From Candidatus Methylomirabilota bacterium (lineage in GTDB: Bacteria; Methylomirabilota; Methylomirabilia; Rokubacteriales; CSP1-6), in the NCBI GenBank assembly GCA_046726415.1, contig JBKPAK010000037.1, forward strand, positions 1-10,185: DNA of 10,185 nt. The letters are read 5' to 3'. Every line of letters begins with the position of its first letter. Positions within the stretch are counted from its first letter, which is position 1. Below, one piece after another: positions 1 to 9,755 of the stretch. The notes beneath the pieces are model-generated. The model was given only the letters and a program-made list of their open reading frames with translations. It was not told where the DNA came from and ran no database searches. A program made the translations under genes and the position numbers.

Positions 1-276
1 GGTGATGCGATCGGCGGCATCAATCGTGCCCTCAGCGGCGTTCGTCGCGAGGCGCCCCACGTCGCCTCCGATCTCCTCCGCCGCACGGATGGAACCGCGG
101 ACCGCACTGACGGCGACGGCCCCGACCTCCGCCCCGACATCGCGGGCGCCGTTGAGCGCAGTCACGACAGTATCGCGCACAAGGTTCACGACTCCGGTGG
201 CAACACCGGTTGCGTTCGCCCGCGCGGGCGTCCGTGGCTTCGGTGACTCGGATGCCGTCTGTCTCTTCTTTGCCAT
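1..276 (-). CDS. Uncharacterised 22-aa-repeat protein (3' end outside window); paralog of 577..1326
   Basis: Not in the ORF track. Manual translation from ATG at 276 (G-rich SD GGGGGG upstream): MAKKRQTASESPKPRTPARANATGVATGVVNLVRDTVVTALNGARDVGAEVGAVAVSAVRGSIRAAEEIGGDVGRLATNAAEGTIDAADRIT..., open to the window edge. 29/46 identity to the 577..1326 product over TGVVNL..IGGD. Confidence 0.85.
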   Translation of the reverse strand, partial: MAKKRQTASESPKPRTPARANATGVATGVVNLVRDTVVTALNGARDVGAEVGAVAVSAVRGSIRAAEEIGGDVGRLATNAAEGTIDAADRIT

Positions 277-576
277 GACTGCCCCCCTTTGCGCGGCGCC
301 TCCGCCTCGAACGTCGCGGCAAGCTTAGCCAATTGCCGCAGGCGCGTCAACGCGCGCGGCCGGAGACGGCGCATCCCAACGCCCACGGGTGGAACTCCCT
401 GACCCGAGTGCGTACCTCCGCGCATACGTAGCCGCCCCGTAATGTGTCTCTCGATATCCTCCCGTTACGCGTTCGGCCGCCGGCCCCCGGACGCGGCCAG
501 GTCGCCGGGCGAGGGACCAACTGGGACCCGCGCATTGCCAAGACCCGCAACACTCAGCCGCTCCAAGGAGGTCGCG

Positions 577-1326
577 ATGGCACAGGTACGGAAGCGCAGG
601 GCTAGGCAGGGGACCAAGCGAGTGGCCCGTGCCGCCCCCGCCCATCGGAACGCCAACCGCATGGAGCGGGGTGTTCGCACCACGATCACGGCTGGTGAGA
701 TCATCACCACGGGGGTCGTCAACCTCGTGCGCACCACGCTGGTCTCCTCAGTCGCCGGCGTGCGCGACGTGGGCGGCGAGATCGAGGTCACCGCCATCAG
801 CGCGGTTCGGAGCGCGATCAGGGCGGGGACCGAGATCGGCGGCGATCTCGATGCGGTGGTCAAGCAGGCGCTGAAGGGGACAGTGCAAGCCACCACGCAG
901 ATCGGCGGCGATGTCGGCAGCGTGGTCCACGCCGGCGCCCGGGGGGCAGTCCGCACCGCGGAGCAACTCGGAGAAAACGTCGGCACGGTGGCGCGACGCG
1001 CCGTCGAGGGGACCGTCGAAGCGGCTCGCGAAATCGGTGGCGATGTCATGAGCTTGGCCCAGAACGCCGCCGAGGGAGCGGTCGAGGCCGCCGATCGGAT
1101 CTCCACAGCGGCCGGCCGCACGGTACGCGACACCCTCTCCGGGAGCATCGCCGGAATTCGCGGTCTCGCGCGCGAGGGGGCGGAAGGGCGAGGGCGGTCC
1201 GCGGCGCCCCACCTCAAGCGACAGAGAGTCGTCGGGACCACCCGGCGACGAGGCGCGGCTCGGGCTCGCGCATCCCGCCGCAAGGGGACGACGCAACGCC
1301 CGGCCTCATCGTCTCGAGAATCGTAG
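577..1326 (+). CDS. Uncharacterised 249-aa protein with about seven 22-aa amphipathic repeats and Arg/Lys-rich termini
   Basis: Strong SD AAGGAGGT before ATG 577, in frame with ORF 442..1326. Repeats end in VGGE/IGGD/IGGD/LGEN/IGGD at an exact 22-residue period. Confidence 0.88.
   Translation: MAQVRKRRARQGTKRVARAAPAHRNANRMERGVRTTITAGEIITTGVVNLVRTTLVSSVAGVRDVGGEIEVTAISAVRSAIRAGTEIGGDLDAVVKQALKGTVQATTQIGGDVGSVVHAGARGAVRTAEQLGENVGTVARRAVEGTVEAAREIGGDVMSLAQNAAEGAVEAADRISTAAGRTVRDTLSGSIAGIRGLAREGAEGRGRSAAPHLKRQRVVGTTRRRGAARARASRRKGTTQRPASSSRES
715..1176 (+). repeat. Coding tandem repeat, 66-bp (22-aa) period, about 7 diverged units
   Basis: VVNLVRTTLVSSVAGVRDVGGE / IEVTAISAVRSAIRAGTEIGGD / LDAVVKQALKGTVQATTQIGGD / VGSVVHAGARGAVRTAEQLGEN / VGTVARRAVEGTVEAAREIGGD / VMSLAQNAAEGAVEAADRISTA / AGRTVRDTLSGSIAGIRGLARE. 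Confidence 0.85.
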
Positions 1327-2820: not shown

Positions 2821-3854
2821 CTACTGGATGCTGCTCGAGGCCTTCCGGACGGCAGCCACCACGTCCGCCGGGAGCGGGATGTAGCCCATCTGCTCGCTCA
2901 TCTTCTGGCCTTCGGCCAGGCAGTAGTCGACCAGCTCGCGCAAGGCGGCCGCCTTCTTCGGGTCCTTGTTGTCCTTGTAGAAGAGCATCCACGTGTAGGT
3001 CGCGATCGGGTAAGACCCCGCGCCCTCCGGATCCGTGATCCATGCGCGGAGATCGGCGGGCAGCTTCACGCTGGCGAGCGCTTCGGCCCCGCCGTGGCCA
3101 CCCGGCCCGACGTATTGCCCGGCCTTGTTCTGGAGGAGTGCCATCTCGATCTTCGAGAACTTCGCGAACGCGTACTCGATGTAGCCGATGGAGCCGGGGG
3201 TCTGCTTGATCGTCGCGGTCACCCCGTCGTTCTTCGGCGAGGCCACGAACTTGTCGCTCTTGGGCCAGTTGACGGTGGTGCCCGCCCCGGGGCCCTTCTT
3301 CCACCCTCGCTGATGGCGCTGAGATGCTGGGTGAAGACGAACGTCGTCCCGCTGGCGTCGGCGCGGCGCACCACGGTGATGTCGCTATCGGGAAGGTTGA
3401 TCCCGGGGTTGGCCGCCTTCAGCTTGGGGTCGCTCCATTTGGTGATCTTGCCTAGGAAGATGGCGACGTAAACGTCCCGGGGGAGCTTGAGGCCCTTGGG
3501 GTTGCCGGGGAGGTTGTAGCCGAGGACGATCTCTCCGGCGGTCATCGGGAGGAGCTGCACGCCACCCGGGACCTTGGCCATGTCGGCATCGGTCATGGCC
3601 GCGTCACTCGCGGCGAAATCGACGGTCCGATTGATGAAGTCCTGGATGCCCGCGCCGCTGCCCTTCGCCTGGTAGTCGACGGTGACGCTCTTGTGCTCGC
3701 TGCTGAACGCCTTGAACCACGCCGAGTAGAGAGGGAAGGGAAAGCTCGCCCCCGATCCGGTGAGCCGCATGCGGTCCTGCGCGAAGGTCGGCGTCGTGAC
3801 CAGCACGGCGAAGCCGAAGCCAAGAGTCAGTGGCGCGCTCAATCGATGCTTCAC
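2821..3854 (-). pseudogene. pstS: Phosphate ABC transporter substrate-binding protein PstS with a 1-bp frameshift near 3304-3305 (real lesion or sequence error)
   Basis: GGAGGT SD, GTG start, signal peptide, GSGASFP, GSGAG, DFAASD, RADASGTT. After AISE the sequence continues in another frame as WKKGPGAGTTVNWPKSDKFVASPKNDGV...GSIGYIEY...SYPIATYTW...GYIPLP. Confidence 0.92.
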
Positions 3855-4085: not shown

Positions 4086-4481
4086 TCAGTCTGTGTCGGC
4101 GTCCATCCTACTGGTCTCGAGCGGACGCCCGTACCGTTCGATCCGAGCCTGGCACCCGACACACGTCTCGACTTCAGGCAGTGCCCGCAGCCTGGCCACC
4201 GCAATCGGCTGACCGCACTCCCGGCAGACTCCGTACTCACCGCTGCTTAGTCGGGTCAGGGCCGCCGTGATCTGGTTGACGCGGTTGACCAGAAGCTCTC
4301 GCGTCCCGAATCGGACCTCGCGCTCCTCGCGCGCTACCATCTCGTCACTTTCGTCGGCGAAGGGCGTGTTGCTCCCGGTCGGACCACAGAGCTCATCCAC
4401 GTCCACGGCTGATCTCATCTGGCGAAGGCGACTCATCGTCAGGGCCAAATCGTCCTCCAAGCGCTTTCGCATTTCTCTCAT
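4086..4481 (-). CDS. DksA/TraR family C4-type zinc finger protein (131 aa)
   Basis: AGGAG SD before ATG 4481. Coiled coil with acidic tip FADESDE, then ALTRLSSGEYGVCRECGQPIAVARLRALPEVETCVGCQ (CxxC-x17-CxxC). Confidence 0.92.
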   Translation of the reverse strand: MREMRKRLEDDLALTMSRLRQMRSAVDVDELCGPTGSNTPFADESDEMVAREEREVRFGTRELLVNRVNQITAALTRLSSGEYGVCRECGQPIAVARLRALPEVETCVGCQARIERYGRPLETSRMDADTD

Positions 4482-4597
4482 CGACCGTCTCCTGTCTTTG
4501 TGTCCTCGCCCCGGTCGGCGCCTTGCAGACCGACGTTGGCGTCGCGAGGACGGGCGACCCGCCCTCGCGCTCATCAGGACGTCGATGCGGCGTCGAG

Positions 4598-5292: not shown

Positions 5293-7571
5293 GGCCGCAA
5301 TGGCAATGCCTTGATCTCGACGCCGAGCGGGGCCAGGGCGTCGGCCACCGCGTTCGCGATAGCGCCGCCCGCCGCGGTGATCCCGTCCTCGCCTGCACCC
5401 TTCACCCCGAGCGGGTTCGTGGGCGAGCGATCCTCCTCGCGCATCCACAGCTCGACCGGCGGCATGTCGGCGGCCACCGGAATGTAGTACTCCATCAGCG
5501 TCCCTGTTGCGAGCTGGCCCTCCGCGTCGTAGACCAACTCCTCGTGGAGCGCGGCGCCCAGCCCCTGGGCCAGACCGCCGAAGAGCTGGCCCTCCACGAG
5601 CATCGGATTGATGGAGCGGCCGACATCGTAGGCGACGACATAGCGCAGGATCCGCGGCACGCCGGTCTCTCCGTCGACCTCGACGACGACGAGGTGCAGC
5701 CCATGGCTGTAGGTCATCCGGTCCTGCTGGTAGTACTCGAGCGCTTCCAGGCCGGGCTCCCTCCCGGCCGCCAGTGCGCGGGCCGGCGACGCTGCCCGGG
5801 CCACGTCGCGCAGCGACAGCGCGCGGTCGGCGACGCCTCGAACGTGCACCGCGCCGGTTCGCAGCTCCAGGTCCTGTGGATGCGCCTCCAGTTCGTGGGC
5901 GGCCACCGCCAGGATCTTGTCGCGCACGCGTTCGGCCGCGCGCACCACCGCGTTCCCGCCCATGACGGTGCCCCGGCTGCCAAAGGCGCCGACGCTGTCC
6001 GGCAGCATATTGGTATCGCCATAGCGGACGGTGACGTCGTCGTAGGACACGCCGAGCACGTCCGCGCAGATTTGGGCGAAGACGGTCTCCACGCCCTGGC
6101 CGACGGACGGGACCCCAGTGTACACGGCAACTTTGCCAGAGCCGTCCACGAGCACGCGAGCGGCCTCCCAGGGCCCGAGTCCCGACTTCTCCACGGCGTA
6201 CCCGAGCCCGATGCCGAAATGGCGGCCAGCCTGCCGGGCCCGCGCCTGCTCCTCGCGCAGCTCGCGGTAGCCCGCGCGATCGAGCGCCCACGCAAAGAGC
6301 CGTGGGTAATTGCCGCTGTCGTAGACGACCTTGCTGCCGAGCGTGGCCGTGCCGACTTCGTACGGCATCGCGTCGGGCAGGATGAAGTTGCGGCGCCGGA
6401 TCTCGGCCGGGTCCATCCCGAGTGCGCGGGCCGCCATGTCGACGAGGCGCTCGCGCACGAAATTCGCCTCGAACCGACCAGGCGCGCGGTAGGTGCCGGA
6501 CGGCGTTTTGTTGGTCACCACGCACGTGACCTCGGCCCGATAGTGGGGAATGCGGTAGGCACCGGGCAGGTAGCCCGCTGTATTGTTGGGCACCGTGGCG
6601 CCGTGGGTGCGGACGTAGGCGCCCAGGTTGCTCCAGAACCGGTCATGCATCCCGACGATTCCCCCGTCGCGGCGGAGGGCGATCGCAATCTCGTGGTACT
6701 GCTCCCGGGAGTGGTTGATAGCCTGAAGGTGCTCACGGCGGTCCTCTATCCAGAGGACCGGTCGCCGCGTGCGGATCGCCAGCAGGGCGACGAGGAAATC
6801 CTCGGGATACAACTCGCCTCGCGCCCCGAATCCGCCGCCGACGTCCGTCTGGAGGAAGTGGACGCTGTGCTCGGGCAGGCCAATGTGCTCGGCCAGGACA
6901 CGCCGGTTGAAGTGCGGCACCTTTGTCATGCCCCACATGCTCAGCACGCCGCGGCCGGGATCCCATTCGCCGAGCGCGCCGCGCGTCTCCATGGGCACCG
7001 CCGTGTGTCGCTGTACATAGAAGGTATCGCGCACGACGAGGTCTGCCTCGCGAAAGGCCCCGTCCACATCGCCATAGGCGACGTCATAGGTGACGACGGC
7101 GTTGGTCCCCTCCGCCTCGAACAGGAGCGGAGCTCCTGGCTCGCTAGCCCCTCGGGTGTCGACGAGCGCAGGCAGGGCCTCATACTCCACCTTGACGTGG
7201 TCGAGGGCGTCTTCCGCCAGGTAGCGGTCCTCGGCCACGATGGCCGCTATAGGCTCCCCAACGTAGCGGGCTTTGTCTCGCGCCAGCGGGTGCTGCAGAT
7301 AGCGGTTCATGCGGCCGCCGCGGTCGGACAGCCGCATGGGGATCGGGCGCGCCAGCTCCCGCAGGTCGACAAAGGTGACGGCGTCGACAACGCCCGGGCG
7401 CACGCGAGCCGAGGCCACGTCGACGGCCCGGATCCGCGCGTGGGCGTGCGGGCTCCGGACGATCGCGAGATGGAGGGTGCCGGGCCGTCGAATATCCGCG
7501 ACGAAGCGACCGTGGCCTTGCAGCAGGCGTCCGTCCTCACGCCGCTTGAGGCTCTGACCGACATAGCTCAT
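5250..7571 (-). CDS. Xanthine dehydrogenase family molybdopterin-binding subunit (CoxL/CutL-like, 773 aa)
   Basis: Family-typical N-terminus MSYVGQSLKRREDGRLLQGHGRFVADI and RSPHAHARI. Also PMETRG, VGGGFG, YRAPGR, GQGVET, GAFGSRG, INPMLVEGQLFGGLAQGLG and GVKGAGE (catalytic Glu). Confidence 0.95.
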   Translation of the reverse strand: MSYVGQSLKRREDGRLLQGHGRFVADIRRPGTLHLAIVRSPHAHARIRAVDVASARVRPGVVDAVTFVDLRELARPIPMRLSDRGGRMNRYLQHPLARDKARYVGEPIAAIVAEDRYLAEDALDHVKVEYEALPALVDTRGASEPGAPLLFEAEGTNAVVTYDVAYGDVDGAFREADLVVRDTFYVQRHTAVPMETRGALGEWDPGRGVLSMWGMTKVPHFNRRVLAEHIGLPEHSVHFLQTDVGGGFGARGELYPEDFLVALLAIRTRRPVLWIEDRREHLQAINHSREQYHEIAIALRRDGGIVGMHDRFWSNLGAYVRTHGATVPNNTAGYLPGAYRIPHYRAEVTCVVTNKTPSGTYRAPGRFEANFVRERLVDMAARALGMDPAEIRRRNFILPDAMPYEVGTATLGSKVVYDSGNYPRLFAWALDRAGYRELREEQARARQAGRHFGIGLGYAVEKSGLGPWEAARVLVDGSGKVAVYTGVPSVGQGVETVFAQICADVLGVSYDDVTVRYGDTNMLPDSVGAFGSRGTVMGGNAVVRAAERVRDKILAVAAHELEAHPQDLELRTGAVHVRGVADRALSLRDVARAASPARALAAGREPGLEALEYYQQDRMTYSHGLHLVVVEVDGETGVPRILRYVVAYDVGRSINPMLVEGQLFGGLAQGLGAALHEELVYDAEGQLATGTLMEYYIPVAADMPPVELWMREEDRSPTNPLGVKGAGEDGITAAGGAIANAVADALAPLGVEIKALPLRPERLSELIRARASA

Positions 7572-7767: not shown

Positions 7768-7959
7768 CTAGGTTGCCAAAGCAACGTCAGACCAGGTGCG
7801 ATCCCATCCCCGGTCATAGGCTGCCTGGAGCAGACGCTGTCTCCCTCGCTCATCGAGCTTCCCGACGAGACGCTCGTATAGTGTCAGCAGATCTTCCGTG
7901 CCGATCTCATCTGGTGTGAGAAGCGCCGCGCCCATGCAACGAAGGTGATGCCGTGCCAT
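7768..7959 (-). CDS. Uncharacterised 63-aa protein; paralog of 9195..9428
   Basis: MARHHLRCMGAALLTPDEIGTEDLLTLYERLVGKLDERGRQRLLQAAYDRGWDRTWSDVALAT. SD-like AGGGGGGT, upstream sigma54 motif, and 20/29 identity to the paralog core. Confidence 0.75.
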   Translation of the reverse strand: MARHHLRCMGAALLTPDEIGTEDLLTLYERLVGKLDERGRQRLLQAAYDRGWDRTWSDVALAT

Positions 7960-8015
7960 GTGCCACCCCCCTGTTCCGCGGCCCTGCTTGAAGCTGTGAC
8001 TCTCTCGCGAGAGAC

Positions 8016-8032
8016 GTGCATCTCGTTTGCCA
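8016..8032 (-). promoter_or_regulatory. sigma54 (-24/-12) promoter
   Basis: Minus strand TGGCAAACGAGATGCAC = GG-N10-GC, conserved in sequence and distance with 9485-9501. Confidence 0.7.
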
Positions 8033-8056
8033 AAAGCCGCGGCGCTGGGGCCTCGC

Positions 8057-8085
8057 TTGACAGGCGGTGTCCCGGCAACGATGAT
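8057..8085 (+). promoter_or_regulatory. Putative sigma70 promoter for the HD-domain gene
   Basis: Perfect TTGACA (8057-8062), N17, GATGAT (8080-8085). Confidence 0.5.
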
Positions 8086-8133
8086 CGCGGCATCACGACC
8101 ATACTCGAACGCGCCGAAGCCGCCGAGCATGCC

Positions 8134-8828
8134 ATGAGCCAAGAGCTCGATCGACTCGTCGTGGTGAAGTCTGTCATCTACATCTCGGGCGAGCGCGATC
8201 CCAGGGAGCCGGTCCAGCGGCCTCCGGACGAGGGCAAGCGCTATCTCATGGGGCACGACCTGCGGCTGCCGCGCATGCCCGAGAAGCCCACCCTGTTCGA
8301 TTTCTTCAAGTATCGCTTCGGCCCTGCCAATCACCTTCTCCAGTCAGCGCGACTCGCGCAGGCGCCGGCGAAAAGCTCGTGCTGGCGTGCCTGGTGCACG
8401 ACATCGCCATCGCCGGCTTCATCCGAGGCGACCATGGCTACTGGGCCGCCGAGATGGTCGAACCCTACGTCGACGCAGAAGTGAGCTGGGCGATCCGGTA
8501 TCACCAGGCACTGCGCTTCTACCCCGACGAGTCCGTGGGTTACAAGTATCCGGAGCTCTACACGAAGCTCTTCGGAGACAACTATCAGCCCGACGCCTAC
8601 ATCGAGCGGGACTACCGCTACGCGCGCGAGCACAAGTGGTACATGACAGCGCGCCTGCTGACGGTCAACGACCTCTATGCTTTCGACCCTACCGTGAAGG
8701 TCGAGCTAGAGGAGTTCACGGACGTGGTGGGCCGGAACTTCAGGCAGCCCAAGGAGGGGCTGGGCTTCGACGCGACCCCGTCGGCGCACATGTGGCGCAC
8801 CATCATGTGGCCGACGAAGTACCTGTAG
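8134..8828 (+). pseudogene. HD-domain protein (PhnZ/MIOX-like motif pattern) with a frameshift near 8360-8375; start may lie upstream (8092)
   Basis: First frame: ...FDFFKYRFGPANHLLQSARLAQ. Second frame: EKLVLACLVHDIA...DHGYWAAEMVEPYV...WAIRYHQ...NDLYAFDP. Together these give the H..HD..H..H..D ligand series. Confidence 0.8.
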
Positions 8829-8945
8829 GACACCGCTGAATTCTCAACCGGGGCGGAGCCCGCCCGCGCGGGCGCTGCGGTCTAGCGCCTGTTTCGCGAG
8901 GAGCATCACGGGCCAGTGCTCGGACCTCCTGCCCGGGAGGCCAGT

Positions 8946-9098
8946 TCAGATGCGACCGGCCAACAATAGGATGACAATGATGAGGAGCACCAAGCCCAGC
9001 CCGCCACTGGGGTAGTACCCCCAGCCCGAGCTGTAGGGCCACAACGGCAGCGCACCGATCAGCAACAGAATCAAAATGATGAGAAGGATCGTGCTCAT
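8946..9098 (-). CDS. DUF3309-like small membrane protein (50 aa)
   Basis: Not in the ORF track. GGAGG SD, then MSTILLIILILLLIGALPLWPYSSGWGYYPSGGLGLVLLIIVILLLAGRI, containing the characteristic GALPxWPYSxxWGYYPSGGLG motif. Confidence 0.93.
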   Translation of the reverse strand: MSTILLIILILLLIGALPLWPYSSGWGYYPSGGLGLVLLIIVILLLAGRI

Positions 9099-9194
9099 CT
9101 GCAAGCCTCCATTCGTTGCAACATCTACAAGAAATCACCGAGGGATCGAGCCGAGCCGAACAGCCTGAACCACACCTGAAGGTGTCCTCCCTGG

Positions 9195-9428
9195 CTACGC
9201 GGCGACCTCCACTTCGCCTGCGTTTCGATCGCATCTCTGCTGCCGTGCCTTGAGTGGGCGCTGTCTGCCGTGGTGGTCGAGTGCGGCCTTGAGTAGGCGC
9301 TGTTTGCCCTGGTGGTCGAGCTTTCCGATGTAGTGTTCGTACAGAGTGAGTAGGTCCTTCGTATCAAGCCTGGCCAGTGTTTTCAAAAGGGTCAGCTGGC
9401 GTATGGCCGGGACGCGATGCGGTGCCAT
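9195..9428 (-). CDS. Uncharacterised 77-aa protein; paralog of 7768..7959
   Basis: Strong SD AGGAGGT, then MAPHRVPAIRQLTLLKTLARLDTKDLLTLYEHYIGKLDHQGKQRLLKAALDHHGRQRPLKARQQRCDRNAGEVEVAA. Upstream sigma54 motif. Confidence 0.8.
   Translation of the reverse strand: MAPHRVPAIRQLTLLKTLARLDTKDLLTLYEHYIGKLDHQGKQRLLKAALDHHGRQRPLKARQQRCDRNAGEVEVAA
9247..9320. repeat. 35-bp direct repeat, 39-bp period (in-frame 13-aa duplication)
   Basis: gccttgagtgggcgctgtctgccgtggtggtcgag (9247-9281) versus gccttgagtaggcgctgtttgccctggtggtcgag (9286-9320), 3 mismatches. Confidence 0.92.
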
Positions 9429-9473
9429 GTACCACCTCCTGTTCGGAACCACGGAGGAAATATATCCTCTCGA

Positions 9474-9501
9474 TGGCAATACAAGTGCATCTCTCTTGCC
9501 A
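9474..9501. promoter_or_regulatory. Overlapping bidirectional sigma54 promoters sharing one TGCA -12 element
   Basis: TGGCA-ATACAAG-TGCA-TCTCTCT-TGCCA reads GG-N10-GC on both strands and lies between divergent ATGs at 9428 (-) and 9534 (+). Confidence 0.7.
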
Positions 9502-9533: not shown

Positions 9534-9755
9534 ATGAAACCACTCGTGATCGTGGGGATCATCCTGATCGCGATCGGCGTCATCGCGTTGGCCTACGGAG
9601 GCCTGAGCTTCACCACCAGCGAAAAGGTGGCGGAGATTGGCCCGTTGAAAGTCGAGAAGGAGAAGACGCGGACTGTCCCTCTGCCTCCTCTGCTGGGCGG
9701 GGTGGCCCTCGCCGGGGGCATCGTGTTGCTCGTCGTGGGTGCCCGCAAGCGCTGA
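9534..9755 (+). CDS. DUF3185-like small two-TM membrane protein (73 aa)
   Basis: MKPLVIVGIILIAIGVIALAYGGLSFTTSEKVAEIGPLKVEKEKTRTVPLPPLLGGVALAGGIVLLVVGARKR: TM, IGPL beta segment, PLPP, TM. GGGAGGT upstream. Confidence 0.88.
   Translation: MKPLVIVGIILIAIGVIALAYGGLSFTTSEKVAEIGPLKVEKEKTRTVPLPPLLGGVALAGGIVLLVVGARKR

Follow-up and report, generated by a model that had tools for sequence, protein, structure and literature searches.

A lineage-restricted family of small proteins in Rokubacteria/Methylomirabilota with two consistent regulatory signatures, a sigma54-type promoter and an ssrA-like C-terminal end

The small bacterial proteins PmrD, IraP, IraM and IraD are connectors or anti-adaptors that bind a component of signalling or of proteolysis, while PspA of the phage-shock system is a helical protein whose expression depends on sigma54 and which acts back on PspF, its own activator. 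Sda of Bacillus subtilis, a 46-residue checkpoint inhibitor of the kinase KinA, is degraded by ClpXP, which recognises its C-terminal residues. According to PMC10730256, Sda consists of two helices with a connecting loop, which bind the DHp domain of KinA via a hydrophobic patch. Here we consider a pair of small genes, ORF1 and ORF2 (for open reading frames), on a contig of 10,185 bp (C37) from a Rokubacteria/Methylomirabilota genome; this entire contig is the stretch of DNA that was analysed, and is referred to below as the window. The pair belongs to a new, lineage-restricted family of small proteins with two unusually consistent regulatory signatures: a sigma54-type promoter and an ssrA-like C-terminal end.

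The genome is of 7.6 Mb in 352 contigs and is 98% complete. An earlier note on the window had described two related minus-strand ORFs of 63 and 77 residues, and both are present, together with the elements that precede them:

7959-7768, minus strand: ORF1, 63 residues; family member with the motif GWDRTW intact, ending ...VALAT (no -AA)
9428-9195, minus strand: ORF2, 77 residues; diverged paralogue that retains the core helices, with GWDRTW changed to RCDRNA, ending ...VEVAA
8016-8032, minus strand: sigma54-type -24/-12 promoter of copy 1, TGGCAAACGAGATGCAC; GG at 8031-8030, GC at 8019-8018, inferred transcription start near 8006
9485-9501, minus strand: sigma54-type -24/-12 promoter of copy 2, TGGCAAGAGAGATGCAC; GG at 9500-9499, GC at 9488-9487, inferred transcription start near 9475
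7960-7976, minus strand: conserved leader with Shine-Dalgarno (SD) block of copy 1, GAACAGGGGGGTGGCAC, immediately 5' of the ATG
9429-9444, minus strand: conserved leader with SD block of copy 2, GAACAGGAGGTGGTAC

The cores of the two proteins share 20/31 identities by BLASTP (E 7e-13; IGTEDLLTLYERLVGKLDERGRQRLLQAAYD / LDTKDLLTLYEHYIGKLDHQGKQRLLKAALD) and their DR....V..A. tails align in register, much as had been described. Differences between the cores fall 7/6/20 over the three codon positions of the 31 aligned codons. In the frame of the ORFs the proportion of synonymous differences (pS) is 0.82, which is saturated, against a proportion of nonsynonymous differences (pN) of 0.20, whereas the other two frames of the same DNA show the reverse, with pS (0.26 and 0.22) below pN (0.38 and 0.41). 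Since pS greatly exceeds pN in this frame only, the frame is under purifying selection and, since pS is saturated, the duplication is old: ORF1 and ORF2 are anciently diverged paralogues. The contention that both are real genes is thereby upheld, and we regard it as almost certain that the family is protein-coding.

The conservation is not confined to the reading frames. Both copies carry the leader GAACAGG(G/A)GGTGG(C/T)AC-ATGGCAC (7976-7960 and 9444-9429), and the alignment is poor over the 35-40 nt that separate promoter from SD; the shared leader and the diverged DNA upstream of it, both of which had been pointed out before, are thus seen on alignment. Because silent sites are saturated and yet 15/17 bases of the promoter have been kept, as have the spacing and the SD block, selection on the non-coding parts seems to be involved too, or alternatively a localised gene conversion has preserved promoter and SD. 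Copy 1 has an extra G within a run of six (7971-7966, minus strand), which alters the spacing between promoter and ATG by 1. The near-identical contigs of two soil runs (X2 and X3) are one G shorter here, so that the extra base probably reflects variation between strains or an error in a homopolymer.

The two copies are unequal. ORF1 has the GWDRTW motif and lacks the -AA end; ORF2 has the -AA end, and its tail is both degenerate and internally duplicated:

9237-9314, minus strand: internal tandem duplication in ORF2, 2 x 39 nt, HQGKQRLLKAALD / HHGRQRPLKARQQ, 28/39 nt identical

Tandem Repeats Finder did not report this 39-nt duplication. In public data ORF2 occurs as alleles of 77, 64 and 49 residues (P0001-P0006), of which those of 64 residues (P0003 and P0004) have one 39-nt unit fewer.

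Word-indexed searches with the single ORFs return near-identical proteins only, while a profile search of 61 related genomes brings in diverged homologues of 50-65 residues and an all-against-library HMMER comparison gives 21 proteins at E <= 0.001. Three long proteins among the 21 (P0008, P0012 and P0023) were rejected as relatives, being repeat proteins in which a few residues were matched many times; weak matches inside long ORFs, both in the 61-genome search (L014, L016-L027) and in the 251-genome search described below (L060, L061), were likewise judged spurious. ORF1 matches the family profile at E 1.2e-23. With a profile of 37 sequences the family extends to 115 database clusters of 42-125 residues; every name given to them is 'hypothetical protein', the only organism names that they carry are Candidatus Rokuibacteriota or Methylomirabilota, and the six convincing named genome records are metagenome-assembled genomes of Rokubacteria/Methylomirabilota. 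A survey of 251 genomes of the phylum, many of them incomplete and with 24 candidates scored in each, found a match in 26 of the 158 other genomes of the window's family (E 1e-14 to 1e-26) and, by the same profile search, in 0 of 93 genomes from other families. All 26 have one copy per genome, and only the window genome has two. A scan of metagenome contigs gave one marginal marine match (49% over 33 residues), which was not used.

The family spans 10 genera and has the consensus (basic N-terminus)-L[ST]T.[EQ]LL..[YH]ER.FG.L[DE]P.A[KR].RI..AA...GWDRTW.D...(L)AA. It falls into three subfamilies, characterised by GWDRTW, by ...W.GMDGLAA and by CPATKRRIV...[LIVP]AA respectively, and ORF1 is a regular member of the GWDRTW type. 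The pair had originally been seen as a local duplicated cassette of no recognised family. The duplication stands, but it is not a purely local matter, since the pair is part of a lineage-wide family; that no known family is recognisable has been borne out. Pfam has no family at E <= 1 for ORF1 or ORF2 and none common to more than one of 25 members; NCBIfam has no family shared by several members; PADLOC gives no match; and the PDB sequences yield a single chain, at E 1.8. PHROGs contributes only the unannotated phrog_8426 (3/37 members, E 4.7e-4), and searches of curated families otherwise produce single-member matches at E >= 0.026. Our search of the literature found no paper linking Rokubacteria with sigma-54, and none on GWDRTW. 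This is, then, an unnamed family of cytoplasmic proteins of 50-65 residues, here seen only in one family of the Rokubacteria/Methylomirabilota, whose absence from Pfam and NCBIfam means that its members are annotated as 'hypothetical' or not called at all.

The first of the two signatures is the promoter. The 17-mer TGGCAA-N2-GAGATGCAC, or TGGCAANNGAGATGCAC in full, has two sites in the window (8032-8016 and 9501-9485, both on the minus strand), a number reached in 0/200 shuffles, and the 16-mer has only these two exact sites in the 7.6-Mb genome, with two more that are one base off. One-mismatch look-alikes (L006 and L007) were set aside, having no family gene downstream; L007 precedes an unrelated ORF. 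Between the -12 C and the A of the ATG there are 58 nt in both copies, which corresponds to the 57 nt that the earlier note had counted from the end of the 17-mer, and the equal distance is thus as claimed. All sequencing runs were compared as contigs, and soil DNA runs hold DNA near-identical to the window; in the contigs of X2 and X3 positions 8017-8032 are invariant, while 8003, 8015, 8016, 8041 and 8047 vary.

The consensus for sigma54 is TGGCACG-N4-TTGCW, and candidate sites were scored by the presence of GG-N10-GC plus agreement at eight flanking consensus positions, with a threshold of at least 5 of the 8. The loci scored numbered 26, namely the two window copies and 24 from the 251-genome search, the spurious weak matches having been dropped beforehand. 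At 21/26 loci the 120 nt before the start contain a GG-N10-GC site that reaches this threshold, as compared with 25 of 1287 (1.9%) 120-nt control windows, coding DNA included, from the same loci. The four loci of genus g34 (L055-L058) have a different arrangement: the ATG of the small gene overlaps the stop codon of a DUF308 gene (an HdeD-like membrane protein) in the sequence GTGATG, and in all four a site scoring 6-7 (TGGCGCG-N4-CTTGCA or TGGTCCG-N4-CTTGCA) stands directly before the DUF308 gene. Judged by its sequence, the small gene of g34 comes second in an operon of sigma54 type. With these included, the gene or its two-gene operon lies behind a sigma54-type element at 25/26 loci and in 9/10 genera; a conserved GG-N10-GC in the homologues is what the earlier note had proposed to look for, and conserved across genera it proves to be. 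Promoters of the relatives reach 7 of the 8 flanking positions, for example CGGCACGGCGGTTGCA. In genus g47 (L035-L040, L042-L046) the element is CGGCAT-N5-GTTGCA with its -12 C only 13-17 nt before the ATG, and there is no SD, so that a leaderless or nearly leaderless transcript is predicted.

The machinery to use such promoters is encoded in the window genome. Two matches to PF04552 are over the cut-off (E 2e-61 and 4e-59, at G000:C125:3521-3994 and G000:C271:16337-16810), and, being separate matches to the sigma54 DNA-binding domain, they point either to a pair of rpoN paralogues or to contamination, the estimate of which for the bin is 4.66%. The activator domain PF00158 has 41 matches in the genome, about 30 of them full-length. 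Taking promoter and machinery together, we consider it very probable that the family depends on sigma54.

The second signature is at the other end of the gene. Among the 115 database members, 111 end in -AA (70 LAA, 24 RAA, 6 IAA, 4 PAA, 3 VAA and others), and in two family alignments the proportions are 29/37 and 72/80; besides helix 1 this is the most conserved feature of the family. The tails take the forms LLAA, GLAA, VRAA, PIAA and VEVAA, and as both the residues before the AA and the length of the tail differ between subfamilies, it is the AA itself that is kept. As a background, 79/4227 (1.9%) of the long ORFs of this genome that pass a filter on third-position GC content end in -AA, and 0.5% end in [LVIA]AA. 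The tag of the genome's own tmRNA is ADTQLALAA, which ends in LALAA, and the genome encodes ClpX. PMC10862746, in which C-terminal pentapeptides were screened without bias in E. coli, reports that Ala is enriched about 7-fold at the last two positions and that the strongest C-terminal degrons are ClpXP-dependent and ssrA-like. By analogy, we favour, though with some reserve, the reading of the -AA end as a degron, by which the proteins of the family would be short-lived by design. In the genus of the window the -AA end is either decaying or already missing from one paralogue.

Structure prediction adds a body to these two signatures. For ORF1, AlphaFold2 and the family alignment give helices at residues 21-31 and 37-50, with a core predicted local distance difference test (pLDDT) of 88-92 and a pLDDT below 50 for residues 58-63. 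For ORF2, AlphaFold2 predicts helices at 8-20, 23-33 and 39-52 and, beyond these, a tail of low confidence (residues 67-77 with pLDDT below 50). The predicted fold is a helix-loop-helix hairpin that leads into a short motif rich in Trp (GWDRTW) and ends in a disordered tail, and with a hairpin predicted for both copies the models agree with the short helical protein that had been envisaged. Foldseek found nothing in the PDB at E <= 0.001 apart from generic helical matches above that value, and the ESM Atlas gave no usable match. A homodimer prediction with two copies of ORF1 scores 0.02, a value that speaks neither for nor against a dimer.

No neighbour is conserved throughout the family loci. 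In g47 and g27 the gene has a nitroreductase-family gene diverging from it on one side and an IF-2B-family gene converging on it on the other, in g34 it follows DUF308 and adjoins a hybrid histidine kinase, at L059 a Cache-HAMP kinase is next on the same strand, and at L053 a receiver-domain protein adjoins. Since the neighbours differ among genera and the next gene is convergent in g47 and g27, this would appear to be a stand-alone gene, and the recurrence of small membrane proteins and sensor kinases nearby is perhaps a hint of the company that it keeps. Two genes flank copy 2 in the window:

9098-8946, minus strand: gene for a DUF3309 small membrane protein (PF11752, E 4.8e-22, 78.3 bits with a cut-off of 22.3, matched over profile positions 1-50 of 50), beginning 96 nt after ORF2 ends
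9537-9755, plus strand: gene for a protein of 72 residues with two transmembrane segments, divergent, its start 36 nt from the copy-2 promoter; weak, sub-cut-off matches to DUF202, DUF308 and DUF3185

The DUF3309-like gene downstream of copy 2, previously named from inspection, thus matches its family over the full profile. There is no terminator-like site in the gap after ORF2, and the two genes are possibly co-transcribed. ORF1 is followed after 200 nt by the gene for a xanthine-dehydrogenase-family molybdopterin subunit (start at 7568, same strand). Between them, at 7663-7634 on the minus strand, lies a sigma70-like site, TTGACC-18-TATCCT; having this site of its own, the xanthine-dehydrogenase-family gene may not depend on the sigma54 promoter.

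Some further features of the contig deserve mention. An HD-domain-like gene (8134-8828, plus strand; weak PF01966, E 0.019) occupies two frames, with the break near 8360-8480. In near-identical contigs, from two runs of soil DNA and one of an RNA library, seven extra bases (GAAGAGC) follow 8360 and would join the HD-like frames, so that the gene in the window is either a frameshifted allele or an assembly error. The pstS gene (2821-3854, minus strand) is similarly in two ORFs, 3219-3854 corresponding to PBP_like_2 positions 7-155 and 2821-3246 to positions 170-264, and this second frameshift on the contig suggests consensus indel errors. ORFs at 442-1326 (plus strand) and 1-276 (minus strand) contain repeats of the motif ...GGD(V/L)G...A(V/I)...G and match nothing in Pfam. 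A DksA/TraR-type zinc-finger protein (4086-4574, minus strand; PF01258, E 2.4e-12) has an Arg-rich N-terminal extension of about 60 residues, which is unusually long.

How might such a gene work? Transcription would need sigma54-RNA polymerase together with an enhancer-binding protein, so the protein would be made only on a specific signal, and activator-dependent transcription would then produce a burst of a small hairpin protein. The amphipathic helices and the Trp motif could serve to bind another protein, perhaps a sensor kinase or else the sigma54 activator. The exposed ssrA-like -(L/V/R)AA end would be recognised by ClpXP or by an AAA+ protease related to it, and the protein would consequently be gone soon after induction stops, the whole being a pulse-type regulator or connector. 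In the window genome one promoter type would drive two unequal copies, of which ORF1, having lost the degron, is probably stable.

As a composite, a sigma54-induced, protease-timed small regulator is the reading that we favour by a modest margin over its negation. The role as regulator or connector, taken by itself, is more tentative and somewhat short of an even chance. The sigma54-induced helical regulator or adaptor of the earlier note has accordingly fared well in its first half, through the conservation of the promoter and the predicted helices, and the regulator or adaptor remains conjecture. Bolder still is the elaboration in which the protein, as a pulse regulator, uses its hairpin and GWDRTW motif to bind its own enhancer-binding activator (a PspA-like negative feedback) or a neighbouring sensor kinase (an inhibition in the manner of Sda), the pair works at two speeds with a long-lived, degron-less ORF1 and a short-lived, degron-bearing ORF2 behind the same promoter type, and the gene is leaderless in g47; to this we would give little credence for the present.

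Several observations weigh against the sigma54-induced, protease-timed regulator. The promoter controls include coding DNA, genus g14 (L047) has GG-N10-GA only, and the promoters in the window match just 5 and 6 of the 8 flanking positions, with ATGCA and not TTGCA. Both the promoter and the -AA counts are inflated by kinship, 11/26 loci being from one genus, so that the raw numbers overstate independence. Upstream of the two window promoters no shared activator site longer than 10 nt was found, and the window contains no activator gene. The only RNA run with matching words covers 8262-8510, which is outside the small ORFs and promoters. As to the C-terminal end, its reading as a degron rests on analogy with E. 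coli, and -AA is missing from ORF1 (LAT), from a homologue in the same genus (PPHA) and from one ORF2 allele (VAV); with three such proteins in the genus, the degron is not essential there. Finally, a wide VIA-align comparison gave a best Z of 2.9, with generic helical proteins.

Different explanations for the pair itself must also be considered. The conserved DNA could be a non-coding element, a small RNA or a repeat, in which the ORFs are accidental, and it is true that long accidental ORFs are common in GC-rich genomes and that the leader block is conserved as nucleotides. Yet the third-position excess, and a pS far above pN in the ORF frame alone, refute this in practice; the profile matches in other genera are at the protein level, at 25-45% identity, Rfam gives nothing over threshold (three sub-threshold chance matches at E <= 1), and the leader RNA folds no better than its shuffles (z of 1.14 and -0.25). 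We attach next to no probability to it. A less drastic idea is that only ORF1 is functional, ORF2 being a decaying duplicate whose promoter survives as the driver of the DUF3309 gene. The loss of GWDRTW (RCDRNA) and the 39-nt duplication would fit, as would the variable length of the ORF2 alleles (77, 64 and 49 residues), one of which ends in AV, and the DUF3309 gene at 96 nt with no terminator-like site in between. The core pN of 0.20 against a pS of 0.82, however, speaks against decay; in the window ORF2 has its SD, ATG and -AA end intact, alleles at 81-97% identity retain the frame in several contigs, and AlphaFold2 still predicts the hairpin (pLDDT 86-90). A decaying ORF2 is accordingly unlikely, if by no means negligible. 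It might also be supposed that both small ORFs are regulatory upstream ORFs or leader peptides, controlling the xanthine-dehydrogenase-family gene in the case of ORF1 and DUF3309 in that of ORF2, as each copy does have a same-strand gene after it and no terminator-like site was found. But the next gene is convergent in g47 and g27 and the downstream genes elsewhere are unrelated, the sigma70-like site at 7663-7634 intervenes between ORF1 and the next gene, and a peptide sequence and -AA end conserved over 10 genera would be unexpected for a leader peptide; we think this very doubtful.

The remaining alternative concerns only the meaning of the -AA end, which could be a docking end for another machine, occupying for instance ClpX or an adaptor in competition with substrates, so that the protein would be a modulator of the protease and not its substrate. 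The same -AA statistics fit this equally, and a modulator of proteolysis that acts at times of stress could well be expected behind an alternative sigma factor. Nevertheless, the known ssrA-like ends act as substrates (PMC10862746), and the docking end is in our opinion improbable, more so than a decaying ORF2 and less so than the leader peptides.

What makes the family of interest is in part the lineage in which it occurs. The Rokubacteria/Methylomirabilota abound in soil and are uncultured, and their large genomes encode a great many sigma54 activators; almost nothing is known, as far as we are aware, of the targets of these activators, and we know of no cultured host. In this setting, the family may serve as a compact, nearly invariant read-out of one sigma54 circuit and as a natural case in which gating at the level of transcription goes together with an ssrA-like end built into the protein. 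If both the degron and the partner turn out to be true, it would be a new class of small connector proteins, and it would provide a ready promoter-plus-degron module from an unexplored phylum.

With respect to the systems mentioned at the outset, PmrD and the Ira proteins have no homology with the family, although they too are small and conditionally transcribed, and the binding of a signalling or proteolysis component is what is proposed here. PspA is likewise unrelated by homology, the family protein being a quarter of its size and having no PspF-like gene adjacent; the points in common are a sigma54-type promoter, a helical (here predicted) structure and small membrane proteins nearby, DUF308 in the g34 operon and the DUF3309 and two-transmembrane proteins that flank ORF2. 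The ssrA tag and ssrA-like ClpXP degrons share with the family a non-polar residue followed by Ala-Ala-COOH on a disordered (here predicted) tail, but in the family this end is genome-encoded on a conserved small protein, and ORF1 is without it. Membership of Sda proper was rejected: ORF1 and ORF2 have no Pfam match at E <= 1, the Sda family PF08970 included, Sda is absent from the fold match lists, and both the promoter type and the phylum are different, that of Sda being DnaA-controlled whereas the family has a sigma54-type promoter, along with the additional GWDRTW and -AA elements. Nonetheless, a small cytoplasmic helical hairpin, predicted in the case of the family, a dedicated signal-dependent promoter and, in g34 and at L059, a position near sensor kinases are the traits by which Sda would seem to be its closest functional analogue.

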